In this document: in pieces, positions 3,058-20,693 of the stretch
Position numbering within the stretch: the first letter of the stretch is position 1
Layout of the letters: every line of letters begins with the position of its first letter
Virus record (IMG/VR): IMGVR_UViG_3300050122_000130
Span: 31,489-95,488 of that record
Source of the DNA: a virus
Strand: one strand, 5' to 3'
DNA length: 64,000 nucleotides
Notes under the pieces: model-generated
The model's input: the letters and a program-made list of their open reading frames with translations, nothing else
Database searches by the model: none
Told to the model about the DNA's origin: nothing
Translations under genes and position numbers: made by a program

Positions 3058-3077
3058 CGTAAGTGCCTTTCCAAAAT

Positions 3078-3106
3078 AAAAAAGGCGCTCACGAGGAGAC
3101 GCCTTG
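3078..3106 (-). terminator. Intrinsic terminator-like hairpin between decoration and capsid genes
   Basis: On -: AAGGCGTCTC-CTCGT-GAGCGCC-TTTTTT. Confidence 0.55.
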
Positions 3107-3132
3107 GCTGAGGGAGATTGTGAAAGCGAAGT

Positions 3133-4119: not shown

Positions 4120-4161
4120 CGAATTTTTCTCCTGTTCGATGAAAGTTGCGGGGAAGGGGAT

Positions 4162-4196
4162 CAAAAAAATCCCCCTCCCCGGAATGGGAAGAGGGC
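4162..4196 (-). terminator. Intrinsic terminator-like hairpin
   Basis: On -: CCCTCTTCCC-ATTCC-GGGGAGGGGG-ATTTTTTT. Confidence 0.6.
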
Positions 4197-4206
4197 CGAA
4201 AAGGTC

Positions 4207-4286
4207 ACAGCCTGCGGTGCGTTCTTTCCGCCTACAGAGAATCGGAGGGCCAATTCTCTTTGCTAACGACGATCAGCTAAGGCTGT
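4207..4286 (-). ncRNA. Candidate structured RNA (four-way junction, tRNA-like, non-canonical)
   Basis: Closing stem ACAGCCT/AGGCTGT enclosing three hairpins; intergenic; no TTC loop or CCA. Confidence 0.35.
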
Positions 4287-4314
4287 TACGAGCGGAGGAA
4301 GCCGCCCGGTTCGT

Positions 4315-5388
4315 TTACTGGTGGCCGATACGCTCGAGGTTCTTGGCCAGACCCGGATTGCGCTTCGCGATCTCGCCGGAGGCGGAAGTCTGCTCCGCGG
4401 AATCCATCGCGTAGGTCTGCTTTTTGCCGCCGTCCTTCGGAGGCAGAGCATCGAAGGCAAACTTGAGCATTTCGACGTTTGCCTCTTTCGGCGGCTTCTT
4501 GCCGGAAGCGATCTCGATCGCCTTGCTGAAGACCTGCGCAGCACTGTCGAAGGCCATGCCGCTGAGATTTCCGACGCGACCACGGACGTGATCCTTGGCA
4601 ACGGCGACTGCATCCATGCGGTCGCGCTCCTTCTTGATGCCGGCGTTGATGCCGGCCTGGATCTTCTCGTCCATCGCCTTGTCCTTCTCCTCGTCGTCTT
4701 CATCGTTGGCGGTTTCTTTGGGCGTCTCCGGATCGTGCTCTTCGTCTTCCTCGTTGACGTCCTTGTCCTTGGCGCCAGCGGTGAGCTTGCCGTCCTTGCT
4801 CTTCTTGGCATCTTTAGCCTTTTTGTCAGCCGCCTTCTTGGCTTCCATGCGCTTTTTCATGCGCTCGGCCTTCTCCTCGTCGGTCTCGGCCTCTTCGTCG
4901 TCGGCCATGTCCTCATCGTCCATGTCCTCGTCTTTGGCCTTGTCTTCCTTTTTGTCCTTCATATCGTCGGGGAAATCGTCGCACGCGACCTCGATCATAT
5001 CGAGCACGGCATCGAGCCCCTTCGGATCCAGCGCGCCGTCTTGCGCATACTGCGGATCGAGGTGACCCTCGACCGAAGCGTTGATCCATGCGCCAAGAAC
5101 CGGACGCTTGGCCTTGAAATTCTTCGCATTGATATTGCGAAGACCCTTGTTCAGGTCGATCTTCGCATCCATCGCAAGCTGCGGACGCAGGAATGTGGTC
5201 AGCATGCCATACGCGACAGTGCCGAGCGCCGACAGTTTAGCTTTCTTGATCATGGTCTTCTCCTTGATGTCAGGGTTAACGGAGTCGTATGCGCGCTCAG
5301 TCAGAAGTGACTCGTCGAGACCGAGCGCCACGATGGCCTCACGAGGAGTCTTGAATTTCTTGCGAAGTGCGTCACGCAATTTGCTCAT
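4315..5388 (-). CDS. Head scaffolding protein
   Basis: Highly charged D/E/K low-complexity, many A-[MFYQ]-D motifs; ATGA overlap with the protease stop; lies between protease and decoration genes. Confidence 0.75.
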
Positions 5389-7925
5389 AGGTGCAGCCCC
5401 AGGATTGCCGACTCGATCAGAGCCCACGGATCGATCGCGCCGTCGCCGACCACAACATCGCTACCCGCGCGGCCCTCAGAAACGAGCGCAACGTGATTTC
5501 CGATGATGTCGCGCATAACACCGTCGTAGGGCTTGCCCTCGTAAATGCCTGGCGTCATGTCAGCGCGGTAGCGATAGGCGCTGGACAATTCCTTTTTGCG
5601 TTTACTCTCGACCGCGTTGATGCCGCGCTCAGCCCAGATGACGAGGCTGTTTTTCAGGTGCGGATGTTCGAACGAAGCGTCGGTACCGGTCGAACCGACC
5701 ACGAGCTCAGGACGATGGTTGGCGGCGTTGACGCCGACATGCTGATCGAGCAACGGCAGATTGTTGAAGGTCGACTCCGCCTTCTTCAGCTCCGCAGGAT
5801 CTCGCAACAATTGATAGATACGGCCGGGATCGAGCCCCAGCTCCTTGTACTTCGGAATTTCCTTTCCGAGATACGGGTTCACAATCGCCTTCGAGATGTT
5901 CGAAATCTCGACGTGCATGCGGCCGTCGGCGTCGATCCTGCGCACCGTCACCGGCGCGCGATCGAACGCCAAGCCGTGGCGCTCGATCCCAGGAATGGTT
6001 GCCCGGTCGAACGCCAGCTCCTCGCCGTCGAGCTCGACGTCATGAATCTTGTCGGCGCCGTCGCCGTCCCAGCCGAACGGCACGATCTTGTCGTCTTCGT
6101 CGCGCGCCTCGATCGTGCGTGACGCGCCGATCGATCCCAGCCGCTTCATGTGGCTCAGCAGGCCCTTGAAATTGAAGTCGCCGCTGTAGCGGACGGTCAG
6201 CGTGTGCTCGGCATTGTACGGTTTCCGATCCCGCGCGAGGCCCGCGAACATGCCGTCCATCGCCTTCACACCGACTCGAGTCGCGAGATTCTTCTTCCTC
6301 GCAATGAGCCGATCGGCCAATTCCTTGTCATCGCCGACGGCTTCGCGGATCTTCGCGTCCGGGATCTTTGAGACGCGCTCGACCGACGCCGAGAGCTCAG
6401 CTTCGGTCATCGGTGCGAACAGCTTCGCGGCGTCCGGGTTCATGCCCTTGTCGCGCAGTGTGTCGAATTCCGTAACCTTGTCGCCGAACGCCGCCCCCTT
6501 GGCCCCCCCCTGAGCACGGAAGCGCAGCGAACCGCCTACATCCAGCGTGGTCGTCTTACCTTCGAGGATCCCTTGATTGTCTCCACCCGTACCAGCCGCG
6601 TCCCAATTAGAAAGCCAGGCATGGATAGCGAAGTCTTTAGCCGCTTCTTTGCGCTCAGCCGGCGTGAACTCGCTGATGTTTTTCTTTTCGAGCTTCCGCC
6701 ATTCCGTCGCAACATGCTGACCGCCTTCCACATCGCGGTAGGGCAGCGTCGCGGCGCCGGCGAGCTGGTACAGGCGCGCGGCGGCGCGCTCATTGTCCGC
6801 GTGGGCCTTAGTCGGGGCTTTCTTGATGTAAAATTTGGAACCGCTTTTATCTTCGTAGGTTCCGCCCTCGTTCGATCCCAGCTTGCCGCCCTTTTTCGAC
6901 AACTCGCCCATCTTCAAGGGTGAACTTGCGCCCTTCTCCGATGACTTTGCCTTTGAGGAGTTCCCGGAATGGGCTGATGCACTCGCAGAGGAACCGCTCC
7001 CGCTCCCGAATTTCCCGTCGTCTTTGCGCGGATGATCGCCCTCGTTCCATTCGTCGCTCGCTAAGGTTCCAAGGCTGCGCATGAACAGCGCCATATCGAA
7101 GGCCTTCGTGATGCCCAGGCCCTTGCTCACGGTCTTGAAGATGGGAGCAACCCCCGACCCGCCGCATTTATCGCACCCAGCGCCCGCGCAGGCCCCGCAA
7201 ACGCTATCCTGCGCAAGACGACGCTTCGCCAGCCGCTTCAGGCGGGCGTCAATCTTCCCGCCGACCGGGGTTCCGGTGTTGACGATCGTCGCCAGCGCCG
7301 GCTGATTATCGTCAGCGTGTTCCGGTTCCGCTTCTTCCTCGCGCGTCCACTTCGCGAAGTTCTCGCGCAGCTCCGCCCAATCCTCCGGCGCCATGTCCTG
7401 CGCCATGCCGAGATTTTCGCCAAGCACCCGGGTGACGTTCGGATGCATCGGCTCCGGCAGTTTGTCGAGCGGAAACCAGCCGAATTCCGAATGCTCCTCG
7501 TTCAGCTTCGGTTTGAACTTGTCCTCGACCGATTCAGTGAACGTGTGGAACATCATCCCGTTCGGAGTCTGCACCAGGTCGAGCAGCTTCTTCCGGCCGG
7601 TAGCGGCCGGCGCCGTCGATCCGAGCTCCTCGCGAGCTTCGCGATCGGCGCATTGCTCCGGAGATTCCCCTGCATCAGCTTTGCCGCCCGGTAGCGCCCA
7701 GTGCCCGACGTAGTTGTCCTTGCCTTCCTCGCCCGCGCGCTTGATCAGTAGCACATCGCCATCTGGTGCCACGAACACGATGCCGGCCGCGATCGGCAGC
7801 GCTGCGTCTTCTCCGGCTTCCTTGTATGCGATAGCAGCAGCCTGCTTTACAGGTCTTCCCAGCTTAGTGAGTTCAGCTATATTAGCCGATATCACTTTCT
7901 GGGATGATCCCTGCTTCAGTGGCAT
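5385..7925 (-). CDS. Multidomain prohead protease (C-terminal DUF2213) fused to Nudix hydrolase, Zn-finger and HipA/PI3K-like kinase domains
   Basis: Perfect Nudix box [22 protein letters not shown]; CGAC..CDKC; kinase-like YIKK..NE..WLSNWD..GDN..LDVGGS; DUF2213 [29 protein letters not shown]; ATG 7925 (MPLKQG). Confidence 0.85.
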
Positions 7926-8643
7926 TTTTGTTTTTCCATCTATTTGGCGGTCGCGTGCCAAGGCGCTTATGCGCTGCGCTCATCTTGGCTTTAGTTTCAT
8001 CGGAATGCTTGCGGCCAATGCTTAGCTGTCTCAGCATTTCCATATGTTCGGGAGACGAACGAAGACCGCTAGTGTTTCTTGTCGCACTCATTTTTTGGCG
8101 AGTTTCCAACGAAACCTTGCGACCTGTTTGAGTCTGCGATCTTTTCAGATTGCTCTCTGGAGTAATAATTTGATTAGCTCTTGCAACTCGGATTTTATCG
8201 CGAGTTTTTTCAGAAAGAGGTATCCCGGCTCGACTACTCAATACCAAACGGCCTGCATCCGTCATGATGTGCGGTTTCGACATTTTTTTGAGCGTTTCCG
8301 CTGAATGTCGTCTGCCTGCGCGTTTAGCTGCGACCTCTGGTGAAGACATCGGGCTGGTCTCTCCGCCCAATCCGACATTGTAGCCTTGTGATCGGTCAGT
8401 CGTCCGAAAGAACCTAATGAACTCTATTTCTAGGCTCAGTATTTCGTGCTTCTCACCAAGCGCCAGAACTTGAGGAACCAAGTTGTTAGTCCCGTAGCGC
8501 ATGATAGCCTGATGAACGGGTAGATTAGATCCTCGTCTCGCATCACTGCAATGCCTCATCCAACGATGTCTTATCGTTTTTGAGGTAATGCCAAAATATC
8601 GCTTTCCATTCGGAAATTCGATCACATAGAGTAGGTAAGCCAT
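7882..8643 (-). CDS. GIY-YIG homing endonuclease with NUMOD3 repeats
   Basis: [18 protein letters not shown]...H, GYN..GG, repeated G.K/RHS.ETK.KMS. Confidence 0.9.
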
Positions 8644-8892
8644 CTGGGCGCTCCAACGCTCATTTCGGTTAGAGGCCGTTCAGTGTGTCGAGCACTGTAC
8701 GGCCTCGTCTTCTTATACTAGCTCCTACTGACTATCGCAACGCTCTCTGCACTGCCAAAACTTGAAGTGCCTATGCCTTGAAGCAGTCCTCACAGCGGTC
8801 CGAACTGATGACCCTGGGACTGACGCTGACATACTTCTCGACGGATGGCTTCTGGCCGCAGTCCGTGCAGACAGGTTCAGCCGGTTTCTTTT

Positions 8893-9174
8893 TCACTTCG
8901 GTTTCTTTCGCCCGCGCGTATCGAGCGCGGTTCGATTATTGTTGCGGCCCTTGTTCACTGCCGGCGGACGCAGACCGAGCCGGCGCTGATAGGCGCGGAC
9001 GTGCGTGGCGCTGAAACCGCAGACACCGATCTCGGCCGCGAGTATTTCCGGATCCAGACCCTGCGGCGCGTCCCTCAAAATCTTTTCGATCTCTGGGGAG
9101 TCGTACGGGTCGCGAAACTTCATTGTCGAACTGGTGCTGATCCACCAATCATCTGAATTCCCGAAGTTCTCCAT
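8893..9174 (-). CDS. Hypothetical protein, possible HTH
   Basis: ORF coupled to the GNAT gene; LAAEIGV...HVRAYQRRLGL. Confidence 0.5.
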   Translation of the reverse strand: MENFGNSDDWWISTSSTMKFRDPYDSPEIEKILRDAPQGLDPEILAAEIGVCGFSATHVRAYQRRLGLRPPAVNKGRNNNRTALDTRGRKKPK

Positions 9175-9605
9175 CAGCCAAGACGATAGGTCAGCGTCAC
9201 AGCTTCTTCGGTACGCCCCTGCTTCTTGGCGATCGCACGCATGGCGCTGTTGCGCACATGCGTTCCTGACTGAATCGTTACTGCTTTGAGTTCAGCGGCC
9301 TTCTCGACCATTGCCGCCCACAAAGCGTTGTAGAGCCCGCGGCCGCGGAATTCCGGGAGCGTATAGCTCTGGAAGATCCACACGCGCCCGGTATCCTTGT
9401 CAAAATTCCAGGTCATCACCGCGGCGGGTATCATTTCGCGGCCGTTCTGCGCGTAGGCGATAAAGGCGTTAAGCGACGTAAAGACGTTCAGCGTCCCGTC
9501 ACCGTACCCCTTCTCGACACATTCCGCCCAGCCGCGCACCGCGAGCTCGAGCGCTGGCGTATTGTTCAGGCCCTCGACGTACACGATCTTGATCTCGTCG
9601 CTCAC
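9174..9605 (-). CDS. GNAT family N-acetyltransferase
   Basis: Motif A YTLPEFRGRGLYNAL and motif B N.AM..I.KK.G. Confidence 0.85.
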   Translation of the reverse strand: MSDEIKIVYVEGLNNTPALELAVRGWAECVEKGYGDGTLNVFTSLNAFIAYAQNGREMIPAAVMTWNFDKDTGRVWIFQSYTLPEFRGRGLYNALWAAMVEKAAELKAVTIQSGTHVRNSAMRAIAKKQGRTEEAVTLTYRLG

Positions 9606-9699
9606 TCGTCAAACTCCGATCATCTGAACGAGCGGCCACCGAATCCAGATCATCCGCCGCGTACGCCAAAAAACCAGACGTGAAGATCGTACTGCATTT

Positions 9700-9864
9700 T
9701 CAAATTCGGCCCACGAGCAGCAAGATGATCAAGATCACGACGATCAGACCGAGACCGCCGCCGACTCGATAACCACCGCCATAGAACGGACCGCCGCCCA
9801 TGCCGCTGAAGCCGCCGAGCAGCGCGATAACGAGAATAATCAGAATGATGGTGCCGATCGACAT
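9700..9864 (-). CDS. DUF3309-family small membrane protein
   Basis: MSIGTIILIILVIALLGG...YGGGY..GGGLGLIVVILIILLLVGRI; GGAGG RBS. Confidence 0.8.
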   Translation of the reverse strand: MSIGTIILIILVIALLGGFSGMGGGPFYGGGYRVGGGLGLIVVILIILLLVGRI

Positions 9865-9878
9865 GGTGGCCTCCTTCG

Positions 9879-10352
9879 TTATTGCCGCGCACCGATCGCG
9901 ATATACTCGCCGGGCCCGGCATTCTTGTTGTCGCGATCGAGCGTCACGCGAAGATCGGTCGATCCGTTCAGCATCAGGACCAGGTCCGACGACGAACTGA
10001 TGATGCCAGGGGGTACCATCGGCGAATTCTGCACGGTGGTCTTCCAGTGTGCACTCTCGAAGGCGTTCTCCAGGTTCAGCGCCAGATCGCCGCATTTGCT
10101 GTCCTCGAGACAGAAAATGGTCACTTCGCCCGGCTTGTCCTTCAATTTCGTGGTCAGGTCGTCAATTTCAGCCTGACTGAGCTCCGGCCAGATGGTTCTC
10201 GCCATCCGTTGGGCCTTTGCCGGGCTTACGGTGCCCGCTGGTGCGGTGACGACGCGGGTGACTACTGGCGCGCGGGTCACGCTCAAATAACCCACAGAGG
10301 CCGCCACAGCGACTAACGAGGCCACGATCGAGGGGATGACATGCTCTCTCAT
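9879..10352 (-). CDS. Hypothetical membrane-anchored/secreted protein
   Basis: N-terminal hydrophobic segment; ORF in the operon. Confidence 0.6.
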   Translation of the reverse strand: MREHVIPSIVASLVAVAASVGYLSVTRAPVVTRVVTAPAGTVSPAKAQRMARTIWPELSQAEIDDLTTKLKDKPGEVTIFCLEDSKCGDLALNLENAFESAHWKTTVQNSPMVPPGIISSSSDLVLMLNGSTDLRVTLDRDNKNAGPGEYIAIGARQ

Positions 10353-10572
10353 GGTATCCCCGCTGGTCGATCGATTGCAGGAGGCGGTTCAGCCGCCGGA
10401 GCCGGCGCGTAGACCGGCGCCGGGCCCTTGTCGCGCTTCATCACGACCGAGACTTTCGGCTTGTGCGGGATCGGCAGATCAGCGCCATAAGCGACCGAGA
10501 AAATCAGCGCACCCACCGACACCACTAAAGCGAACACAGATAGTGCCAGCGATATTCGATACAGCATCGTGC

Positions 10573-10926
10573 TCAATCCTGCGTTTCTTTGGCGAAGTCG
10601 CCGTGTTTGTCGACCGGCGCCGGCAGCAGCGGCATCTGTACGATATCGGAACGCTTGTGCCAACTGTCCGGGCAGAACTGAATTTTGCCGTCGGTGATGA
10701 TGTAATGGCAAAGGATATTTTGCTTTTCACCACGGCCGAGATTGGTTTGCGGGTCGATCCCACCAGTCCAGCGAACGAAGGTCTGCGCAAAGCTTGGCGA
10801 GAACGTTGGCTTCTGCACGTCGCCATTGAAGGTCCAACTATCGGGCAGGATGTGAACTTCCTCGCATGCCGGACACCAGTGAGCGTGACCGGTAATTGTT
10901 TTGCGGAGTATCGGGCTGACCTGCAT
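10573..10926 (-). CDS. DUF6527-like Cys/His protein (paralog 1)
   Basis: HWCPAC...H, WTFNGD..KPTFSPS, CHYIITDGKIQFC.D..H. Confidence 0.75.
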   Translation of the reverse strand: MQVSPILRKTITGHAHWCPACEEVHILPDSWTFNGDVQKPTFSPSFAQTFVRWTGGIDPQTNLGRGEKQNILCHYIITDGKIQFCPDSWHKRSDIVQMPLLPAPVDKHGDFAKETQD

Positions 10927-11026
10927 CAGGAATATCTCTGAGCGACGATCATCACAATCACCATGAAGATCACCATCATCGCCACGATTCCAGCGGCCTG
11001 CCATATCTCTTTACGTCCAGAACGCC

Positions 11027-11419
11027 TCACAGCCGCGCGCTCGTCATATACTTGTCGTCAGGGACATCTGGCATCTCAACCGTCTGTCCGCGCAGCGAAT
11101 GCGTGCAGTCACCGAGAAACTCTATCATCCCATTGCGAATGAAGTAGTGGCAGACCGTGCTCGCGACACCGCGCTGATATTCCTTCATGTCCGGTGTGTT
11201 CACCCGCATATTGATGCTCGGCGAGAACGTCGGCTTGTACCGGTTGTTGTTGAACGTCCACTTCGCACCAGATGAGTTTGGCTCGTCAACGTTAATCTCG
11301 TGGCCATAGCCACAGCCTGGACACCAGTGACCGTAGCCACCCTGCGGCCAATACTTGCGATCGAGCGCTACCAGCTTGCTCACGGCGTCAGCTTTCCATC
11401 GCGCAAAAATCCATGCCAC
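11027..11419 (-). CDS. DUF6527-like Cys/His protein (paralog 2)
   Basis: HWCPGC...H, WTFN....KPTFSPS, CHYFIRNGMIEFLGDCTH. Confidence 0.75.
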   Translation of the reverse strand: MAWIFARWKADAVSKLVALDRKYWPQGGYGHWCPGCGYGHEINVDEPNSSGAKWTFNNNRYKPTFSPSINMRVNTPDMKEYQRGVASTVCHYFIRNGMIEFLGDCTHSLRGQTVEMPDVPDDKYMTSARL

Positions 11420-11853
11420 TCATTGTTCGAACCCATGAAGAACGAGCCGGCGCCCGCGGCGCACGTCTTGCCGTTCTTGTCGACGGTGATTTTCTCGCCA
11501 ACAGTGCCGTGCCGTACCCAGCACCGGTGCTCGTGGTCTTCCTTCATCGTGCAGTTCGACGCGCGGCCCTCGATCGCCCACGAATGACCGTCGGCGTGCT
11601 TGCAGTAGATCGACAGGCCGTCATAGCCCACGCGCGGATATGAATTAGGCCCAGCGCCGTTTGTGCGGCGTGCGGACCAAAGCGCGCCCGTCGGCATCTC
11701 GTTCCAGCGAACCTCGCGACCGGTAGTCGTCTCACGCATGATCGGCGAGCTCACGCCATCCTTGTCGAAGCCGCTCATCTTCGGCTTGCCCTCAGCATCG
11801 AGGACGTGTTCCCACCAGGTCGTCTCGAAGACAGCGTGCGGATCGATCGTCAT
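11380..11853 (-). CDS. Divergent DUF6527-related Cys/His protein
   Basis: RASNCT...HRCW.RHG...ITV....AGSF...WHGFLRDG.L C-terminus. Confidence 0.5.
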   Translation of the reverse strand: MTIDPHAVFETTWWEHVLDAEGKPKMSGFDKDGVSSPIMRETTTGREVRWNEMPTGALWSARRTNGAGPNSYPRVGYDGLSIYCKHADGHSWAIEGRASNCTMKEDHEHRCWVRHGTVGEKITVDKNGKTCAAGAGSFFMGSNNEWHGFLRDGKLTP

Positions 11854-11881
11854 GACAAGCAATCTCCGCAATCCGACAAGC

Positions 11882-11911
11882 AAAAGGCCCCGACTGTAAA
11901 GTCGAGGCCTT
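11882..11911 (-). terminator. Intrinsic terminator
   Basis: On -: GGCCTCGACT-TTAC-AGTCGGGGCC-TTTT. Confidence 0.65.
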
Positions 11912-12026
11912 GGCCGTTATTTATTGCAAGTCCGTGTCGCCACGAGCCCGGGCGACCGCGCGAAGCTTACCTCAACATCTCCGACAAATGCTAAGGGGCG
12001 CCGGCTCGGCCGGCGGCAGTATTGGG

Positions 12027-12275
12027 CTATCGCTGGAGAAAGTAGCCGTGGCCACCTCCGAAACCGCCAAGCAGGCACGAGATGATCTCAGCTAGCAGAT
12101 AGATAATTCGGATCGATATCGACAGCATGATGATTATCAGCAAAACCTGCGTGATCCACGGAATTCCGGACATGCTCTCGAGCCAAGGTCCGATCAGCCG
12201 GCAAATCTTCAATGCCGCGATGATACACATAAACCAAACGATTAACTCGACAACGAACCAGATTGAAAAGCACAT
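12027..12275 (-). CDS. Small two-TM membrane protein
   Basis: Two hydrophobic segments; GGAGG RBS. Confidence 0.55.
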   Translation of the reverse strand: MCFSIWFVVELIVWFMCIIAALKICRLIGPWLESMSGIPWITQVLLIIIMLSISIRIIYLLAEIISCLLGGFGGGHGYFLQR

Positions 12276-12544
12276 CGCTCAGCCTCCAAGGGTTAAGCCG
12301 ACGCAACGCGCGAGAGTTTAGTTCGTTCCTCTCACACCCAACCCAGAACCCAAAAAATGAAAGCCCAAAGCGGAAGCGCGATCGCTACCGCCAGCACCCA
12401 AGGCCAGGATGCGGAATAGATTATTTTCAAGACAGGTGATCCATTTTGACCATGCTTCCACTTCAAAGCCTGACTTAAACTTTCCCCATGAGACAGCATC
12501 CTCGCCCAATTTGGGTCGACAGCGGTTTGTTTCCGCCGATTGAT

Positions 12545-13378
12545 CTACGAGAAGCCCGGCACGATCGGGATGCTCACACATCGGCAGTTAATCAACTGGC
12601 CTGGATGGATGAACTCTTTGACCGCAGGGTCATACCATCCTTTGGTGACGTCGTAGGTTTTGCCGTTGTTCTTGACATGCGTCGGGCGCGGGACCTTCCC
12701 CCCGCCTGAATGTCGCCATGTCGCGGTAGTGATGCCGTTCTCAATGAACCGCACGCGCGACATGTTCGCCGTCGCTTTATTGTTCTGATCTTTCGATATC
12801 AGCGCCGCACGCCGCTTCGTCACGCCGTACCGCTTCTCAAGTTGTTTCGAAAGTGTTCCAAGGTCCCGGCCAGCCGATACCGACCGCATCACGAGTCCTT
12901 CGACTTCCTGCAGGTGCTGGCTGGCGATCGATTTGATCAACCCAACATTCTCCGCGGTCGTCGCCTCGACCACGTCCTTCATGGCTTGCGACATCTGAAA
13001 CCGAACAGAGAAGCCGCCTTTTCGCAAGATCGAAGCGAGCTGCTGGTCCGTCCGCTTGTGCGCGGCCGTCGCGAAGTATTTCGCCAGTTGCGGTGCCGCC
13101 CAATCGAATCTCTTCAGCCAGCGCTTCTTCAGCAACTCGATCGCTTTCTTGAGCGCGTTTGCCGGCAGGATATCGTCCATCGCCATCGCTGGCGGGTTCT
13201 CGCGGTACGCAGCCTTGATCCAGTAATCGACGGATGCGTTCATTTCCTTGATGAGCCGGTCCAGCTTCTTGCGGTAGGCGACGCTGAGGCCGATGTTCGG
13301 ATGCACCGGCCGCAGCTTCTTCGGCTTCGAGGCCTTGGATGCTTGGCCAACTGAAGTCGCGCGAAATATTCCGTGCAT
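12545..13378 (-). CDS. Minor head protein, MuF / SPP1 gp7 family (short form, no toxin extension)
   Basis: LRPVHPN.G...Y, RAALISKDQNNKA, W.HS....PRPTH, PGQLINCRC. Confidence 0.9.
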   Translation of the reverse strand: MHGIFRATSVGQASKASKPKKLRPVHPNIGLSVAYRKKLDRLIKEMNASVDYWIKAAYRENPPAMAMDDILPANALKKAIELLKKRWLKRFDWAAPQLAKYFATAAHKRTDQQLASILRKGGFSVRFQMSQAMKDVVEATTAENVGLIKSIASQHLQEVEGLVMRSVSAGRDLGTLSKQLEKRYGVTKRRAALISKDQNNKATANMSRVRFIENGITTATWRHSGGGKVPRPTHVKNNGKTYDVTKGWYDPAVKEFIHPGQLINCRCVSIPIVPGFS

Positions 13379-13389
13379 CGAACTTTCCA

Positions 13390-13658
13390 ACGTAGGCCCG
13401 AACGAACGACATATCGTCGGGCACGATCGATTGCATTTTTAGCAGCTGGTCGACCATGGATTTGACGTCGGAGTAAATCTCCTCCGGCGTGGCCATGGCC
13501 CAGAACTTACCGCTGCCGTAGAGCGTCACAGCGGTCTTGCTGGGACCGATGGCCATATCCATCCCGTAGACGACATCAACCGGCGCCTTCGGCAGGGCCG
13601 GCGCGATCGCCGCGGCCGCAACGCCCGTCAGAAACGCTCTGCGGTTAAGTTCGGGCAT
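13390..13658 (-). CDS. Twin-arginine-leader protein with TerL-like and capsid-like short segments (frame stays open to 12837, overlapping MuF)
   Basis: LNRRAFLTGVAAAAIAPA leader; 3' end uncertain. Confidence 0.5.
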
Positions 13659-13947
13659 CGAGCGCGCGCCTCCCGATCGGCGGGTCACCCATCAATTGCG
13701 ACGTGACATTCTCGTGCTCGAGATAACCGTCTCTGCTAGGATCGTATTGCGCGGCAGCGCGGTAATCCGGCTTGTCGACAGCGTACTCTTTCAGCCGATT
13801 GTCGACTGAACCTGCCATGCGCTTGCGGTAACCGCGCATATATTCCTTCATGTATCGATTGTACGATTCTCGATCGGCCCATTTCGACGGCGTGGCACCT
13901 TTCGGTCTACCGCGTGGACGTCCAGTTGGATTGCTCCAATAGCTCAT
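13645..13947 (-). CDS. Hypothetical AT-hook DNA-binding protein
   Basis: GRPRGRPKG motif, basic helix. Confidence 0.55.
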   Translation of the reverse strand: MSYWSNPTGRPRGRPKGATPSKWADRESYNRYMKEYMRGYRKRMAGSVDNRLKEYAVDKPDYRAAAQYDPSRDGYLEHENVTSQLMGDPPIGRRALDART

Positions 13948-14213
13948 CAGTGCACGCGCCCGCGGCGCTGATGCTCCCACCAGATGAAGCGGTGATAGCC
14001 CCACCAAAACGGATTGGCGAATGAGTGGCGGACCACGAGCGCACGATTGTCGAGCGGTATGGTGTGTTTGTCATCAACGCAGCCCATACGGCTGTTGCAC
14101 GATGGATAGATGCAGTCGTCCCACGGACAGGCGGTCATCATGCAGCCCCATAAGGCCGCACCAGCGGCCGAGCGACGCGCGTGTTGCGCTGCTCAGCCCG
14201 ATCTAGCGCAGAA

Positions 14214-14489
14214 TCACTCTTTGCGAAAGGAGGTTCCCGACGTATCGCCGGAGCCCTCCCCGTTTTTTGAGTTCGAACGCTCCAGATCCTTCACTTCCTC
14301 GAGCATCGCGTCGAAGTCGGCCTCGCCGCTATCGAGCGAACCTTCGTGCGCCTCGAAGGCCTGGTTCATCCGAGAGTCGAAGCCCGGCATACGGTCGATC
14401 AGCGCCTGCGCGCGCTCGTCCATCTTCCGCTTGCGCTCGGCCACCATCTGCGCTGCGAGACGCGCCTTGCTGATCGGTGCGTCCGCCAT
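14214..14489 (-). CDS. Hypothetical coiled-coil protein
   Basis: ATG 14489 with GAGG RBS, helical composition. Confidence 0.55.
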   Translation of the reverse strand: MADAPISKARLAAQMVAERKRKMDERAQALIDRMPGFDSRMNQAFEAHEGSLDSGEADFDAMLEEVKDLERSNSKNGEGSGDTSGTSFRKE

Positions 14490-14490
14490 A

Positions 14491-14925
14491 TCAGCCTCGT
14501 CCCGCTTCGCCGCTCGATCGATTGTCCGACTCAGATGTAGGTTCAGCAACTGCGACAGCAGCAGCGTTCGCTGCATCGGGCGCGTCCCTCTTGAAGCCGG
14601 CCTCTGCGAAGATCCTCATCATGGCCTCGGCGCCGAGCGGGTCGCCGATCTTGACCGCTCCGCGAATCAGCGCCGATGACGAATACATGCCGGCGACCAC
14701 GCCCATGATCTGCTCCGCGCAATAGTTGCGGTGCTTCTGCTTGTCCTGGACGACGTCGATGCCGGGAAACAAATCGATCACGGTATTGAGCTGGTCGCGC
14801 GCGCGCGCCGCGAGGAAGCGCCCATACCGCAGGCTCACGTCCATCAGCCACGTCTGGTCATCACCGGTGGTGATTTCCTTTTTGATCTCGTCCAGGCGCC
14901 GCTGGTAGGCTTCATGGTTGAACAT
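14491..14925 (-). CDS. Hypothetical protein
   Basis: 144-aa ORF, TGATG-coupled to the upstream ORF. Confidence 0.6.
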   Translation of the reverse strand: MFNHEAYQRRLDEIKKEITTGDDQTWLMDVSLRYGRFLAARARDQLNTVIDLFPGIDVVQDKQKHRNYCAEQIMGVVAGMYSSSALIRGAVKIGDPLGAEAMMRIFAEAGFKRDAPDAANAAAVAVAEPTSESDNRSSGEAGRG

Positions 14926-15089
14926 CAGTCGTCGTCTTCCATCTCGACTTCGTTGCCATTGTCGTCGACCACCTTCACCTTGAACGGTGGGTCGTCTTTC
15001 TGCACTACAACGACTTCGCCGTCCGGTCCAGCACCGATCGGACCCTGCTCGAGCGTCGAGGTATCAATCTTCTTCGGCTCTTTGGACAT
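14925..15089 (-). CDS. 54-aa acidic protein immediately downstream of the portal-ART gene (not in ORF track)
   Basis: ATG 15089, 1 nt after the portal stop; MSKEPKKIDTSTLEQGPIGAGPDGEVVVVQKDDPPFKVKVVDDNGNEVEMEDDD; TGATG overlap with next gene. Confidence 0.6.
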   Translation of the reverse strand: MSKEPKKIDTSTLEQGPIGAGPDGEVVVVQKDDPPFKVKVVDDNGNEVEMEDDD

Positions 15090-15090
15090 T

Positions 15091-18000
15091 TCAGACTTCC
15101 TCGAGCTCGATGTGAGTGCCCTTGACGGACTTCACATGAAAGCGGCTGCCCGACTTGAACAGCACCTCAGCCTCACCTGGATGAGACGATAGCTTCTCGA
15201 TGTCGCGTCCGTTCTTGCCGTGCACCGTGTAGCTATAATCGCCGGACCACGTTCCCTGGTTCTTGCTAGTTGAGGTGAAGCCACGTTCTTCGATGATGTG
15301 CCCGGGAATATAGGCCTTGAACTGCTCCGGCGTCAGCGACGCTTTGCGGTACGTGGTTTGCGTATACTTCGGCAGCTTCTCAAGCCCGGAATTCAGCGAC
15401 TTCATGAACTTGTATTGCGCGACAGTCATCGTGCCACGGCGCAACTCGGAATTCACCTTGCCGTAATGCGAACCACTGTACGCGATGATCGGAACAGCGT
15501 CCGCGCCACTGATGTGCTTGGACAAGCCTGCCGATTTGACCTTCTTTTCCGCTTGCGCGACGTAGGCCTTGGCAGCATCACCGCCACCAAACAGCGCTTC
15601 CATCGCTTCGTAGTGCGTCTTCAGCTCAGGATCGGCCGCAAACTTCTCGTCGAGCTCCTTCTGCGCTTTAGCCTCTTTTTCGGCCTTCTCGGCAGCGGCT
15701 TTCTTCGCGTTCTCTTCGACCTTCTTCGCCGCGGCCTCAGCCGCAGCTGATTCAGTCTGCTTGACCTTGGCGAGCGTGGCTTTGTAGTCGGCGACCTTCT
15801 GGTTCAGCTGCGCGTCGCTCAGGCCTTCCTTGCCGGCGTACTTCGCATTGAACTCCTTGATCGCAGTGACAGCTTCCGGCTCGGAGCTCGAGATCGGTAG
15901 CGTCGTTCCTTTCTTGGCTTTCTTCAGCTCCTCCGGCGTGGCCTGCGGAACAGTGGGCTTGTCCTGCAACAGGCCCATCTTCTTCATCTGATCCTTCATC
16001 GCAGGCTTCATGTTTTCCGAGAGCTGCTCGGCAAAAGCCGGATTGTACTTGAGCAGGTTTGCAGCGGTATCGGTGTCGTTCTTCTGCAGCGCCTCAGCCA
16101 CCGCGCCCAGGAATTTCGGATAGGTGCCGCCTTCACCCGACATGAACTCAGCCAGCGCGTTCAGCTTCGCTGGCTCAGGCGTCTTTTCTGTAACCGCTGG
16201 ACCTTCCCACGATTTAGCAATTGCAGCTTTTTTCTCCGGAGTCAGAGCAGCAGCTTCCTTCGCTGCCTTCTTCTCGGCATCCGTCATCGGATGGCCCTTA
16301 TACATCAGCTTGCCGTTTTCGGTGTACTTCTCCAGCTTCATGCCGAGCGACTTGGCTTGCGCCGGCATCGAAACTGAGGGCCAGCCCATGGTCTCCATGA
16401 TCTCTTTTGCGGTTGTGCCCTTCTCGAGGAGATGGCCGATGATCTCCTTTTTCGAGTTGAACTTCGCACCAACGAAGCCCTTGGCTACATCTGCAAGAGC
16501 CTTAGCCGCGCTTGACTTGCCGCTCGCCGGCGTACCGCCGCCCCCTGTGGTCGAGAACTTGCCGTCCTGATCGCGCTTGACCTTGCTCTCGTCGAACTGG
16601 CCATCGTCGAACGCCCAGACATCGGCCGCGATCTCGGAGGGCTCGATCGCTTCGTCAGCAGCGCCGTCGACTTCCTTGTTGTCGCGCGATCCACTACCGC
16701 CTTCGCCGCCACCGCCGGCTCCGCCGCCCTGAACCATGCCCTGGTCGGCTGGCGGCTCCGGTAGATCGTCTGGCTCGAGTCCATTGTACGGCGAGTCATC
16801 GTCAGCGATGACGATCTCACGAACTTCTTCTTGGCCGATAACGCCCATGTCGACGTAAATCTGATGGGTCTCGGCCTCGGTCTTCTTGACCTCAGATTCG
16901 CCCTTCTCGTCCAGGCTCCAGAGCGGTTCGAACTCGAAGCCGATCGAGGGATCGACTTCACCGAACAGATTGAGCTGAATAAAATCAATAATGCGCTTCA
17001 GCTTGTCGCGGAACAGGTTCTCCTGCATCGCGTGCACAAGATCGTAGAACACCCGAAGCTCCCCCTCGCTCGAGGCGTTCAGGCCCGAAGGCGTGATGCC
17101 GAGCAGCACGATGAGCGGGATACCCGACACCGATGACATCTGCTCCTGGCTTTGCGCCTGCAGGTGGTCGAGCGTCCCGAGGGGGGTTGAGATGTTGAAG
17201 AACTCTTCGGTCTCCTTGTCCAGCACCATGGCGCCGGCATTGCTGCGCGCCTTGTTGAACAGATCGATGCGGTCAAGCACCTCCTCGCCGCCGCCCTGCA
17301 GCAGCGATTGAGCGTTCGTGTAGACGCCCGAAACAGAGAAGCTTTCGATCAGGTTGGTCACGGCCTGTCGGGTGCGCAGCCAGTTGTCGACATATGGCTT
17401 GGCCATCTGCGACATCGACAGGCCGCCGAATGCATACGACGGCTTGAGAATGTCCGGCACCGGCCGGCCGACGAACGTCAACAGGCGCGAGACGTGCACC
17501 TGCTTCGCCATCGCGAACCAGACTTGCGGATTGTACCAATCATCCGCCAGCGGGTCATTCGCGTTGTAATTGACGGGGTAGCACCAGATCGGCTCGATAT
17601 GTTTGATGTTCTTCAGCGAGCCCTTTTTGAATTGAGCCTTGCTGGTCTCATCGCTTCCATTGCCTAGGTCGCTCTTGAGCTCGTCCGGATCGTCACTGTC
17701 GCCGGTGTCAATGTAGAGGTGGCTCCGCCCCATCCAGCCATCGAACTCTGCGACGGTCTTGAACTTGCCCCGCAGGTCGAGGCGCTTCATGTCCTCCTCG
17801 ATCGCCTTCAGCTTCTTCTGCAAAGCCTCGTTGCGTTTGCGTTGTGCGATCTCCTCCGGAGTGGGCTCGTCGTCTTCCTCGTCGTCATCGGCCACGGCGC
17901 CGCCGGCAGGGGCACCATCCGCATCATCGTCCTCTTCGTCCTCGAGCGGCGCATCGGGCGCTTTGTCGGCGCCAAGGCCTTCATCCGCCTCGTCGGCGTC

Positions 18001-18597
18001 CTCGTCGCTGGCATCGCTCTCAGGTTCGGCTTCACCGGCAATCGTGAGCCGGATCCACTTCCTGGTCATCTCGGTCGCAAGGCGTTCCGAGATCCGGCGA
18101 TACTCCGGCCGCTGGGTCAGCTGCGACAGATACGCGTACCCAAGAAAGCCGATGCCCTCCGAGAAGGCCTCGCCGATCGGGTTCGCGAAATTCCACGCGT
18201 TTGTGTACGACTCGTTGGCCCAGGTCGCGATCGCGCCGTCCAGCGCCATTTCCGGCTCGGCGCCCTGGGGTAGAACGCCCGGAGGTGGCTTGAATGCCTG
18301 GAACGGGTTGTAGAGCGCCGCTCCTTGGCTCTGCGAGGCCCCTGAACGCGTTTTACGTGCGGCCCGCGCCATAACTTCGGAACTTATCTTCATCGGCGCA
18401 CGGGGCTCGACAACGGCCGCATGGTGCTTCTCAAGATCGACAGCTGTGCGCGGTGGCACTTTGTCCGCCGCGGGCGCCGGCTTGGCTGTGGGAGCCGGCG
18501 TCGCCGCGACAGCAGGGGTGTGTCGCATCACACCGAGAACGGCCTCCTTGATGGTTTCTGAAGTCGGCCGCTGCCGCTTATACCGGGTCACCGTCAC
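15091..18597 (-). CDS. Portal protein (DUF1073 family) with long C-terminal extension ending in an ADP-ribosyltransferase domain
   Basis: Portal: FLGYAYLSQLTQRPEY, HVSRLL, YVDNWLRTR, GIPL..LLGITPSGLNASSEGE...FYD; ART: AYSG..Y..VN..LR, TYRK, GFTSTS, EAEVLF..G.RF.V. Confidence 0.9.
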   Translation of the reverse strand: MTVTRYKRQRPTSETIKEAVLGVMRHTPAVAATPAPTAKPAPAADKVPPRTAVDLEKHHAAVVEPRAPMKISSEVMARAARKTRSGASQSQGAALYNPFQAFKPPPGVLPQGAEPEMALDGAIATWANESYTNAWNFANPIGEAFSEGIGFLGYAYLSQLTQRPEYRRISERLATEMTRKWIRLTIAGEAEPESDASDEDADEADEGLGADKAPDAPLEDEEDDDADGAPAGGAVADDDEEDDEPTPEEIAQRKRNEALQKKLKAIEEDMKRLDLRGKFKTVAEFDGWMGRSHLYIDTGDSDDPDELKSDLGNGSDETSKAQFKKGSLKNIKHIEPIWCYPVNYNANDPLADDWYNPQVWFAMAKQVHVSRLLTFVGRPVPDILKPSYAFGGLSMSQMAKPYVDNWLRTRQAVTNLIESFSVSGVYTNAQSLLQGGGEEVLDRIDLFNKARSNAGAMVLDKETEEFFNISTPLGTLDHLQAQSQEQMSSVSGIPLIVLLGITPSGLNASSEGELRVFYDLVHAMQENLFRDKLKRIIDFIQLNLFGEVDPSIGFEFEPLWSLDEKGESEVKKTEAETHQIYVDMGVIGQEEVREIVIADDDSPYNGLEPDDLPEPPADQGMVQGGGAGGGGEGGSGSRDNKEVDGAADEAIEPSEIAADVWAFDDGQFDESKVKRDQDGKFSTTGGGGTPASGKSSAAKALADVAKGFVGAKFNSKKEIIGHLLEKGTTAKEIMETMGWPSVSMPAQAKSLGMKLEKYTENGKLMYKGHPMTDAEKKAAKEAAALTPEKKAAIAKSWEGPAVTEKTPEPAKLNALAEFMSGEGGTYPKFLGAVAEALQKNDTDTAANLLKYNPAFAEQLSENMKPAMKDQMKKMGLLQDKPTVPQATPEELKKAKKGTTLPISSSEPEAVTAIKEFNAKYAGKEGLSDAQLNQKVADYKATLAKVKQTESAAAEAAAKKVEENAKKAAAEKAEKEAKAQKELDEKFAADPELKTHYEAMEALFGGGDAAKAYVAQAEKKVKSAGLSKHISGADAVPIIAYSGSHYGKVNSELRRGTMTVAQYKFMKSLNSGLEKLPKYTQTTYRKASLTPEQFKAYIPGHIIEERGFTSTSKNQGTWSGDYSYTVHGKNGRDIEKLSSHPGEAEVLFKSGSRFHVKSVKGTHIELEEV

Positions 18598-20693
18598 CGG
18601 CGCATGCCCGCGGCTTTGGCGATAACCGCCTTGCTGATCTTCATCGGCAGCCTCGCGTGCGTTCGGTGCATGACCGCCAGCGCAAGCGCCATGACGCAGT
18701 CGTCGTTGAAGCCTTCGGGCGCGCTGTTATGCGTGGCAAACCCGGATGCGATGAATGTCTTTGTCGTTGTCCCGAGAGCTACCACTTCGCGGTCGCCAAG
18801 GTATTCAACCGACTCAATGGCTACTTTCTCATCGGTCCATAGCGCGCCAATTCGATTTGGATCAAACTTGGCTAGAAGTCGCTTCGGTCTAATGAGACCT
18901 AGAAATCGCAACACTTCTGCTTGACCGCCCTTCAGACTTAATCCGATTACGTCACGATTGGTGCCGCCACTCCCGCTTTCCGACCAATTAAATTGAAGCT
19001 TTGTCAGACAGGATCGCACCTCCTGCAGCATAGCGTTATCCCGCTGCGCCATTGAGACTCTGAACGTCGATCCATCTCGACCAATGCGATCCTGCTGCGA
19101 AAGAGAGCCTTCGCCATCGAAGGCACCGGCTAGATAACCAGCCTCATAAGAATTGAGAGATTGTCCCCACTCCTTCGCTACCCTGATTAGCTTATGCGGA
19201 ACGTGGCGTGGTGACTTGCTCGAGGATATACCTCGGAGTTGGGAAGTGGTCCGCCACTGCATCGGGCCATTGCTGCTTGCAGTCAGCCAGAGATGTTCCG
19301 ACGACGAAATAAATTCATGACCGTCTTCGAGCGTAATGCGGTGACATGGTCGCATAATTCTATCGGCATCGGTGACGGTCGAAGATCGCCACTTACGGAC
19401 CTTCTGTCTGCCGACCGGGTTCTCATCGAATGCGGTAAGACGATCACCGGGACGGAGCGAACCTACGGGCACATAACGAAGGTCGTCGGTAAGAACTGGG
19501 GTTTCTGCATCCATGCAGTACCTTACACCAGTTCTGGTGTACTCGTACTCGAAGATCTCGAGCTCGCGTTGGATGTTGCCCGCATGATCGTGCGGCAACG
19601 CGCCGTCCGGCGCAGCGGGGAATGCCACATCGCCAGATTGAATGGCGAGTGCGAGACCTTCCATCAAAAGCTGCTTTGACTTCGAACTGAAAATGAACTC
19701 TTCGACCTTCGAACCTGGTGTCTTCTGCAAGCGCTCCACGATTGGATCGCCGACACCGGTCGCGTCCGCCAGCGTCGGCGTATAACCAATCGACGCTTTT
19801 AGGATCGGGATCTGCTGCTCCCAACTCCCCTGCATGCGGATGAACTTCGTAAGCCGGCCATGCTCATCGAGACCGCAATCGACCGTCCAGTCCTGTTTCT
19901 TCGCAAAGTCGAGACCGTGCACCACCGATGCGCCGACTTGAATGCCGGGCAGATTGGCGCATGCCGCAATCGACTTGAGGCCAAAAGGATTGCCCTGATC
20001 GTCTGATGGCTCAGCGAGATAGAGCTCCTTGAAGACGGCGTCCGGCAGAACTTTCTTTGCGTCCGCGACTTCGTCTGCCTCGAGAACGTGCGCGGCGATC
20101 GCATCGATGGCTGTGATCTTGTGGTAGCCGAAGTTAGGCTCCTCACCCTTCTCAGCCTTGCGTGCGAGCTGATAGAACCAATTTCGCCGGCCTTTGACGT
20201 TGCCTATAATCCGGATCGGACCGCGGGTCGCGGTCAGTGTCGACCGAACGGCAAACCAAGCGTTCTCTTTCGTGCGGCTCGCCTCGTCCATCACCGCGGC
20301 ATAGACGTCCTCGCCGTAGAGCGAGTCCGGCTTGTCCGCCGATTTGAACCAGAGCACCGCGCCGTTGATCAGCGTGATGGTCTTGAGCGTTTGGTTCTCG
20401 GTGCGCAGCTCTTGCGGGATGGCGCGCAAGCATCGCCTGAAAGCGATATCGGCCTGTCCTGAGACCGGAGCTACCCACCAGTAATTCCAGCCCTCCTGAC
20501 CGTGGAACGCTTGCTCGCTGAACCAAACGATACAGCCCGATGTCTTGCCGGCCTTCGTCGAGGCCTCGATAAACGAATAGCGGCGATCGTCAAAGATCGC
20601 ATCGAGCTGTTTCGGATAGAGATACGGTCGCTCGTAATCGAGAAGAAATTCCTCGATATTGGCGACGGCGCCGACGGACGTAGCCTTGGCCAC
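18594..20693 (-). CDS. terL: Terminase large subunit containing an intein
   Basis: Walker A ASTKAGKT, Walker B VMDEA, nuclease GLDFAK..DWT, DATGVGD, DDCVMALALA. Confidence 0.92.
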   Translation of the reverse strand: MAKATSVGAVANIEEFLLDYERPYLYPKQLDAIFDDRRYSFIEASTKAGKTSGCIVWFSEQAFHGQEGWNYWWVAPVSGQADIAFRRCLRAIPQELRTENQTLKTITLINGAVLWFKSADKPDSLYGEDVYAAVMDEASRTKENAWFAVRSTLTATRGPIRIIGNVKGRRNWFYQLARKAEKGEEPNFGYHKITAIDAIAAHVLEADEVADAKKVLPDAVFKELYLAEPSDDQGNPFGLKSIAACANLPGIQVGASVVHGLDFAKKQDWTVDCGLDEHGRLTKFIRMQGSWEQQIPILKASIGYTPTLADATGVGDPIVERLQKTPGSKVEEFIFSSKSKQLLMEGLALAIQSGDVAFPAAPDGALPHDHAGNIQRELEIFEYEYTRTGVRYCMDAETPVLTDDLRYVPVGSLRPGDRLTAFDENPVGRQKVRKWRSSTVTDADRIMRPCHRITLEDGHEFISSSEHLWLTASSNGPMQWRTTSQLRGISSSKSPRHVPHKLIRVAKEWGQSLNSYEAGYLAGAFDGEGSLSQQDRIGRDGSTFRVSMAQRDNAMLQEVRSCLTKLQFNWSESGSGGTNRDVIGLSLKGGQAEVLRFLGLIRPKRLLAKFDPNRIGALWTDEKVAIESVEYLGDREVVALGTTTKTFIASGFATHNSAPEGFNDDCVMALALAVMHRTHARLPMKISKAVIAKAAGMRR
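18726..19517 (-). mobile_element. 264-aa intein with LAGLIDADG homing endonuclease
   Basis: N-terminal C (CMDAETPV), block B SSEHLW, YLAGAFDGEG, C-terminal THN followed by +1 Ser. Confidence 0.92.

Follow-up and report, generated by a model that had tools for sequence, protein, structure and literature searches.

To our knowledge, Alt of bacteriophage T4 is essentially the only ADP-ribosyltransferase (ART) packaged in a phage head that has been studied. It is a head-targeted protein and a substrate of the T4 gp21 protease. Alt is an ART of the R-S-E type, is packaged in the head and injected with the DNA, and modifies host arginines, e.g., R265 of the RNA polymerase alpha subunit (PMC5512222, PMC8120803). 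Another R-S-E, arginine-type ART (PMC8120803) is Tre1 of Serratia proteamaculans (PDB 6DRH/6DRE), which has a PAAR/type VI secretion system (T6SS) carrier and an ARH-type immunity protein, Tri1. Among the toxins carried by MuF proteins, 14% are ARTs, and delivery with the DNA has been proposed for MuF toxins (Jamet et al. 2017, PMC5576092). Portal and MuF proteins fused to PBECR and 2H domains have been described (Iyer et al. 2017, PMC5512222), and ARTs fused to MuF or portal proteins are predicted to be packaged in the head (Iyer et al. 2022, PMC9503650). Here we analyze a portal gene with an ART at its C-terminal end, found in a 64,000-nucleotide stretch of DNA (hereafter the window; positions 31,489 to 95,488 of IMG/VR virus record IMGVR_UViG_3300050122_000130). 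The record is a contig from an uncultured phage, 95,488 bp long and estimated to be ~90% complete. The phage probably packages this ART in its capsid and passes it on to the host that it infects next.

The portal protein and its cargo

After the portal core, the gene encodes approximately 505 amino acids (aa) of additional protein, which we call the cargo. It consists, in order, of an A-x-D site, a 14-residue tag, a Gly/Ser spacer, a winged helix-turn-helix domain (wHTH), a helical region and the ART. The first-pass annotation, made from the letters of the DNA, had proposed a portal with C-terminal cargo, and we confirm it: the PF06381 core, the winged helix, the helical region and the ART all lie in one open reading frame (ORF). 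The features of the gene are as follows (window positions; AF2, AlphaFold2).

15091..18597 (-): portal-cargo gene (protein P0001), a single uninterrupted ORF of 1168 aa
16861..18135 (-): portal core, Phage_portal_3 (PF06381 / TIGR01555), aa 155-579, Pfam E 5.3e-75
16678..16740 (-): Gly-rich segment, aa 620-640, close to where the portal core ends, read from the translation
16606..16617 (-): W-A-F-D, candidate head-protease site, aa 661-664, just before the cargo
16555..16596 (-): cargo tag FDESKVKRDQDGKF, aa 668-681, pattern "FDESK.KRD.DGKF", then a Gly/Ser-rich spacer
16288..16452 (-): DUF3489-like winged helix, aa 716-770, predicted H-H-H-beta-beta (AF2, pLDDT 80-89)
15634..16287 (-): Ala/Lys/Glu-rich helical region, from composition and AF2
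15094..15600 (-): R-S-E ART domain, aa ~1000-1168, from Pfam, Tre1 alignment and AF2 fold
15346-15348 (-): R of the catalytic YR (Y1083-R1084), aligned with Tre1
15265-15273 (-): S-T-S, aa 1109-1111, aligned with Tre1
15166-15174 (-): E-A-E (E1142-A-E1144), aligned with Tre1

The last 229 aa alone score 43.0 bits against PF03496 (ADPrib_exo_Tox; cut-off 23.4, E 4e-11) and 30.5 bits against PF01129 (NAD:arginine ART; cut-off 22.3). By sequence, the best relative of solved structure is Tre1 (6drh_B, E 3.5e-13), with which Y-R, S-T-S and E-A-E align residue for residue; these motifs lie where the first-pass annotation had them. The next solved matches are ExoS, a Listeria ART effector (8za7), XopAI, ExoT, Vis and SpvB-type chains. 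We modeled aa 650-1168 with AF2, using 25 relatives. The ART domain of this model has a pLDDT of ~90, and Foldseek again places Tre1 first (E 2e-11, target TM 0.81, rmsd 2.7 A over 184 columns, 30% identity), followed by XopAI, ExoS/T, HopU1, Vis, C3 and VIP2. The domain resembles Tre1, ExoS and C3 rather than T4 Alt. The first-pass annotation took ExE as typical of arginine-specific ARTs such as T4 Alt/ModA and VIP2, in agreement with a published account, where ExE is the signature of arginine-modifying ARTs (PMC8120803).

All aligned sequences (26/26) retain the catalytic Arg, the Ser that opens S-T-S, and the catalytic Glu, which is the second of ExE; the first Glu of ExE is retained in 25/26 (it is missing in P0027). 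Because the catalytic residues are conserved across these 26 sequences, the ART is very probably active as an enzyme. One might suppose instead that it is an inactive remnant, retained only to add bulk to the portal or to plug it structurally, given that activity is read from the sequence. We find this hardly credible, since the active site is conserved even where ART identity falls to 31-40%.

No part of the cargo is more conserved than the winged helix, in which approximately 20 columns are invariant in the 26 sequences. The peptide KKEIIGHLLEKGTTAKEIMETMGW, from which the first-pass annotation proposed a DUF3489-like wHTH at about 16450-16290, corresponds to aa 716-739 (16381-16452). The H-H-H-beta-beta topology is predicted both in the long AF2 model and in a model of 95 residues. 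The top matches in Foldseek and VIA-align are all wHTH proteins (MarR/ZitR, YodB, HlyU, AspA, NolR, DriD, SmtB), but the scores are weak (Foldseek E 8e-3 or worse; VIA Z <=5.7, within the range of common arrangements), and the wHTH gave no usable match in the ESM Atlas. The direct match to PF11994 (DUF3489) lies below the cut-off (14.9 vs 29.5 bits, E 0.029, covering profile positions 5-37 only), and only three of the 26 relatives match this profile at E <= 1. An intermediate exists on a viral contig: the C-terminus of the 193-aa product of L009:7602-8183 is 49% identical to the window wHTH (E 2e-15), and this protein passes the PF11994 cut-off (31.2 bits) and adjoins a canonical DUF3489 gene (89.8 bits). 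The wHTH-ART ORF of another relative, L007, reaches 26.8 bits. Because the L009 sequence closes the gap, the label "DUF3489-like" is justified as a transitive link between sequences only, and not as formal membership in the family; in this qualified form the earlier assignment stands. Our literature search on DUF3489 returned one incidental mention only. The locus of the intermediate (L009:7602-8480, on a 50.8-kb viral contig) encodes a 193-aa protein that ends in the cargo-type wHTH (WPSVSMPAQAK), beside a DUF3489 gene of 94 aa.

What does the winged helix do? It probably steers the ART to a conserved partner, either DNA or protein. The suggestion that it tethers the enzyme to the ejected genome is pure conjecture. 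A more radical proposal is that the wHTH guides the ART to nucleic acid and that the substrate itself is DNA or RNA, with host DNA or the phage's own DNA end as possible targets (cf. DarT, Scabin/pierisin and the rRNA-modifying Rhs ART). The wHTH is tightly coupled to the ART, its best (weak) fold matches are DNA-binding regulators, and DNA-modifying R-S-E ARTs do exist (PMC8120803). However, those listed in the same paper bear QxE (PMC8120803), whereas ExE is conserved here; the closest solved structures all belong to enzymes that modify proteins; basic residues are few in the predicted recognition helix; and winged helices often bind proteins. We therefore regard a nucleic acid substrate as improbable.

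The region between the winged helix and the ART had been described as Lys/Ala-rich and helical, which is borne out by its composition (aa 760-960: 18% Ala, 15% Lys, 10% Glu) and by the AF2 model. The model has two short helices, a disordered Pro/Ala/Lys linker (~795-813), a bundle (~813-920) and a helix of 61 residues (928-988), with pLDDT 82-92 for the helices. No Pfam family matches this region, and conservation within the cargo is lowest here (31-69% identity); we read it as a spacer or adaptor. We did not follow the idea that it forms a P22-like portal barrel, since the portal core and the long helix are separated by a Gly-rich linker, the tag and the wHTH.

The portal part is identified by its profile match, by its position right after the large terminase gene (TerL), and by solved relatives that have 12 chains per entry. 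PHROG portal families stretch the core to approximately aa 660 (phrog_146, E 2e-94). The nearest solved portal cores are the gp19 proteins of Pseudomonas phages E217 and Pa193 (PDB 8FVH, 9B41; E 1e-32), with similarity to approximately aa 648. These portals form dodecamers, and their C-terminal helical barrel extends into the head (PMC10329688, PMC11456595). The barrel end aligns to approximately aa 646 of the window protein, just before the A-x-D site, and therefore the cargo begins inside the capsid, on the DNA axis. The first-pass estimate of about 12 copies facing the capsid interior fits this geometry. The number follows if every portal subunit bears cargo; how many copies the virion contains hinges on whether the cargo is cleaved off and at what stage. 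The maps of both solved portals show neither residues 529-765 (approximately 237 C-terminal amino acids) nor the first ~93 residues (PMC10329688, PMC11456595); in Pa193 the first 93 residues are missing by mass spectrometry as well (PMC11456595). No enzyme is assigned to the E217 and Pa193 tails, in contrast to the ART-bearing window portal, and a sequence comparison found no similarity between these tails and the window cargo. At its other end, the window portal has an Ala/Pro-rich extension of ~120 aa (18238-18597, (-)), which ends with a conserved M-A-L-D. It may be a removed propeptide (cf. the first 93 residues of Pa193).

The portal-cargo junction and its occurrence in relatives

The border of the portal core reads V-W-A-F-D, then D-G-Q, the tag FDESKVKRDQDGKF and the Gly/Ser-rich stretch. 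The A-x-D ahead of the tag is kept in nearly all aligned relatives, and the tag residues E, R and G-K-F are invariant across the 26 sequences. We counted the motif [hydrophobic]-A-[LMFIV]-D in the head proteins (genes in window 1954-18597, (-)). It occurs 10 times, compared with 2.2 +/- 1.5 in shuffled sequences, and at least 10 occurrences were reached in 0 of 2000 shuffles. The positions are capsid aa 41-50 (two), portal 117-120 and 661-664, protease polyprotein 649 and 664, a scaffold-like ORF (three) and MuF 69. The motif thus lies at domain borders, immediately ahead of the capsid core, ahead of the protease domain and, on the portal, ahead of both the core (aa 117-120) and the cargo. Judging from this placement and enrichment, A-x-D is a plausible candidate for the cut site of the head maturation protease.

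A second copy of the tag, again with a Gly/Ser stretch, lies in the protease polyprotein near window position 7019 (~6990-7040, (-)), ahead of a kinase-like module. In relatives of approximately 1500 aa, the same kinase module is found on the portal, between the first tag and a second tag that opens the wHTH-ART module. Since the kinase module is on the protease here and on the portal in these relatives, modules move between head proteins together with the tag. The relatives have the tag ahead of each module, and cargo genes that apparently stand alone start approximately 30 aa upstream of the site and tag.

These observations bear on the question of whether the cargo is released at all. Alternatively, it could stay on the portal and act in the producing cell or the procapsid, either modifying phage or host proteins late in infection or shielding the packaging machinery from defenses that sense the portal or terminase. 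The fusion is covalent, cleavage is deduced from the motif, and long C-terminal tails remain on the portals of E217 and Pa193 and simply do not show in the maps. Protection of the packaging machinery is moreover an alternative raised for packaging-linked ARTs by Iyer et al. (2022, PMC9503650). Against permanent attachment, the conserved border site is also found ahead of the capsid core and the protease domain, the tagged module apparently also exists in relatives as a gene of its own and on further large carriers, and a sealed capsid gives enclosed enzymes little access to NAD+ or substrate. We consider it rather unlikely that the cargo is never released.

The fusion is not confined to this contig. 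Portal plus ART is found in approximately 45 independent metagenomic relatives, on contigs of up to 78 kb, and both wHTH and ART are present in 36 of the first 47 relatives. That the extension might be a misassembly or chimera, a doubt attached to the first-pass annotation, is rejected: dozens of independent contigs have this architecture, and the GC content stays level along the gene. With the wHTH segment as query, phmmer returned 222 proteins from a full scan of 1.84 billion representatives. Among those of at least 320 aa, 42/62 have the ART and 23/62 a detectable portal; the wHTH-ART pairing includes proteins without a detectable portal. Several long portal-less proteins combine Nudix, wHTH and ART. 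Some relatives have further domains on the portal: P0047 adds an anti-CBASS Acb1 and a Nudix domain before the ART, and P0012 a Nudix domain alone. A few portals retain the wHTH but end in an unrelated C-terminal region without a Pfam match. The representative library also holds approximately 90 short proteins (65-320 aa) with the wHTH at the C-terminus. Inteins split the P0003 portal (Hint_2) as well as P0118, a carrier that has no portal.

Proposed delivery of the cargo and the downstream ORF

Immediately after the portal-cargo gene lies a small acidic ORF, with counterparts in relatives.

14925..15089 (-): strongly acidic ORF of 54 aa, starting 1 nt after the portal-ART stop; net charge ~-9
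L002:9536-9736, L003:9675-9884, L005:5342-5596, L007:1678-1962, L008:9334-9540: small acidic ORFs after the portal-ART gene in relatives

The 54-aa ORF is conserved at the same place in L002-L006, while in L007 and L008, whose ARTs are divergent, a second and different type of acidic ORF takes this place. The MuF-type ART carrier of Xanthomonas phage Mallos is likewise followed by an acidic ORF, of 92 aa, in which we detected no homology to the small ORF of the window. The 54-aa, 120-aa and 144-aa ORFs that follow the portal-cargo gene match no Pfam or PHROG family. The 54-aa ORF is a possible inhibitor or immunity partner of the ART.

The cargo could accordingly be a weapon like the polymorphic toxins, as has been proposed for MuF toxins: a Tre1-type ART that modifies FtsZ and other proteins, arrests or kills cells or excludes competing phages, with the acidic ORF as immunity protein or inhibitor. 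Its nearest solved relative is an antibacterial T6SS toxin crystallized with its immunity protein (PMC8120803). An acidic small ORF always follows the gene, its two sequence types track the two ART subtypes, and the Mallos carrier repeats the pattern; the wHTH portals with a swapped C-terminal domain also resemble polymorphic toxins. On the other hand, the small ORFs diverge like everything else, so that their co-variation with the ART subtype is unspecific, and host arrest would have to be compatible with phage growth. Profiles of ARH and Macro immunity domains found nothing in the 95-kb record. Furthermore, MuF toxins have been reported almost only from temperate phages (PMC5576092), whereas this record has replication genes of its own (a primase-helicase, a Dda-like helicase, an exonuclease and a ParB-methyltransferase) and no tyrosine integrase by the PF00589 profile, a result that leaves room for other integrase types and for the missing ~10% of the genome. 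Taken together, the replication genes and the lack of integrase and of ARH or Macro genes favor, but do not settle, a role in lytic takeover or counter-defense over that of a lysogen's weapon. We think a toxin of this kind unlikely.

The reading we prefer, with reasonable though not high confidence in the sequence of steps as a whole, is that the cargo is loaded with the portal, cut free, ejected, and then ADP-ribosylates one or more arginines on a host protein. Twelve copies of the cargo would enter the procapsid as part of the portal ring. The head-maturation protease, which in this phage itself bears Nudix and kinase cargo behind the same tag, would cut at W-A-F-D and free a protein of approximately 505 aa inside the head. 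During infection the freed cargo would leave through the portal and tail channel together with the DNA. In the new host the ART would use NAD+ to mono-ADP-ribosylate arginine(s) on at least one host protein, for takeover or counter-defense.

Several points weigh against this sequence of events. Packaging and activity are predictions from sequence. Cleavage at A-x-D rests on the position and enrichment of the motif, the literature searched yielded no specificity for the head-protease family of the window, and uncut cargo would stay tethered to the portal without access to the host. A folded protein of ~55 kDa can get through the channel only by unfolding, as is known for other ejected proteins and presumed here. 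The stand-alone relatives could be fragments produced by gene calling. Finally, the pTM of the AF2 model is 0.42, so that its arrangement of domains is unreliable.

It is tempting to go further and hypothesize that the portal delivers a fixed dose of 12 wHTH-guided ARTs; that the junction, A-x-D plus an HPR/KR...GKF tag, releases the cargo and marks every such module on portals, proteases and free-standing genes in many phages; and that the invariant wHTH binds the leading genome end or a conserved protein of the host nucleoid or transcription apparatus, so that the ART works at the very point of DNA entry. This extended scheme is tentative, and as a whole we would sooner doubt it than accept it. 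If true, it would mean that injected phage effectors have a targeting principle that is new, and if the A-x-D and tag junction is a general signal for packaging and release, injected proteins could be predicted across uncultured phages. Head-packaged enzymes are a phage's first move against its host. Fusion to the portal fixes the place of such an enzyme (the capsid interior, on the DNA axis) and its likely dose (12 copies), which makes delivery and stoichiometry directly testable. The occurrence of ART, Nudix, Acb1 and kinase modules on head proteins points to a modular kit for counter-defense or takeover, swapped between portal, protease and free genes, and the wHTH-ART pairing offers a first functional handle on DUF3489.

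The remaining genes of the head module are arranged in the order TerL, portal-cargo, a few small ORFs, MuF, a GIY-YIG homing endonuclease, protease polyprotein, scaffold, minor head protein and major capsid protein.

18594-20693 (-): large terminase TerL, directly upstream of the portal gene
12545-13390: separate short MuF gene, 281 aa, phrog_324 E 4e-77
7882-8643 (-): GIY-YIG homing endonuclease inserted in the head module, phrog_314 E 2e-32
5385-7961 (-): protease polyprotein ORF, with Nudix and kinase-like modules ahead of the protease domain (C-terminal ~200 aa)

The portal-cargo gene begins with GTG, in a 4-nt overlap with the TerL stop, and this start codon is right because relatives share the same N-terminal residues. 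TerL (699 aa) has an N-terminal ATPase and a weak nuclease match ending near aa 362. A LAGLIDADG_3 match at aa 516-570 (E 2.9e-4) is just below the cut-off, and the C-terminal part of TerL may be an addition derived from a homing endonuclease or intein. Genes similar to the GIY-YIG endonuclease come after MuF in L003, L005 and L006.

Comparison with known systems

In a set of 50,697 phage records, no cultured phage bears the window cargo on its portal. A megablast search of this set with window 12-24 kb gave no match, and tblastn with the cargo (E 1e-5) matched only three records, none of them T4 and all in genes for "minor head proteins." The closest cultured cases are the MuF-type minor head proteins of Xanthomonas phage Mallos and Pseudomonas phage ZQG1. 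A scan of species-representative genomes with two peptide patterns found no prophage relative, which is not proof of absence. The literature passages searched contain neither the architecture of a PF06381 portal with tag, DUF3489-like wHTH, spacer and Tre1-like ART, nor the near-constant wHTH-ART pairing and the site-plus-tag junction. ARTs fused to portal or other head proteins are already known as a kind, with portal fusions coming from comparative genomics only; some details of the window are undescribed.

Tre1 is the best match in both sequence and fold, and shares the R-S-E residues of an arginine-type ART (PMC8120803). The carriers differ: Tre1 has its PAAR/T6SS carrier and Tri1, while the window ART is on a portal in a phage with no ARH or Macro gene. 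The target of the window ART may well differ from that of Tre1.

The MuF-ART toxins (e.g., the EFV toxin) and the 1194-aa "minor head protein" of Mallos are alike in layout, with the ART at the extreme C-terminus of a portal-adjacent head-assembly protein, followed by a small ORF, and phrog_595 joins MuF and the window ART type. In the MuF-ART toxins, however, MuF carries the toxin; in the window the portal carries the ART, MuF is a separate short gene, and the MuF profile has no match on the portal-cargo protein. MuF toxins are also tied to temperate phages, whereas no PF00589 integrase was found in the record that holds the window.

The polyvalent and portal-fused effectors of Iyer and colleagues (PBECR, 2H/Acb1, Nudix) are predicted to be packaged and injected, and relatives of the window protein bear portal, Acb1, Nudix and ART together. 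The combination of several effectors that characterizes polyvalent proteins is found here as well: portal, wHTH and ART are joined among the head genes, to which relatives add kinase, Nudix and Acb1. According to the 2017 survey, the ARTs of polyvalent proteins belong to the H-Y-D clade, with the R-S-E enzymes Alt and VIP2 outside the genuine polyvalent proteins; the window ART is R-S-E. T4 Alt is the functional model for the window cargo, with the difference that Alt is a separate protein and the window ART is fused to the portal.

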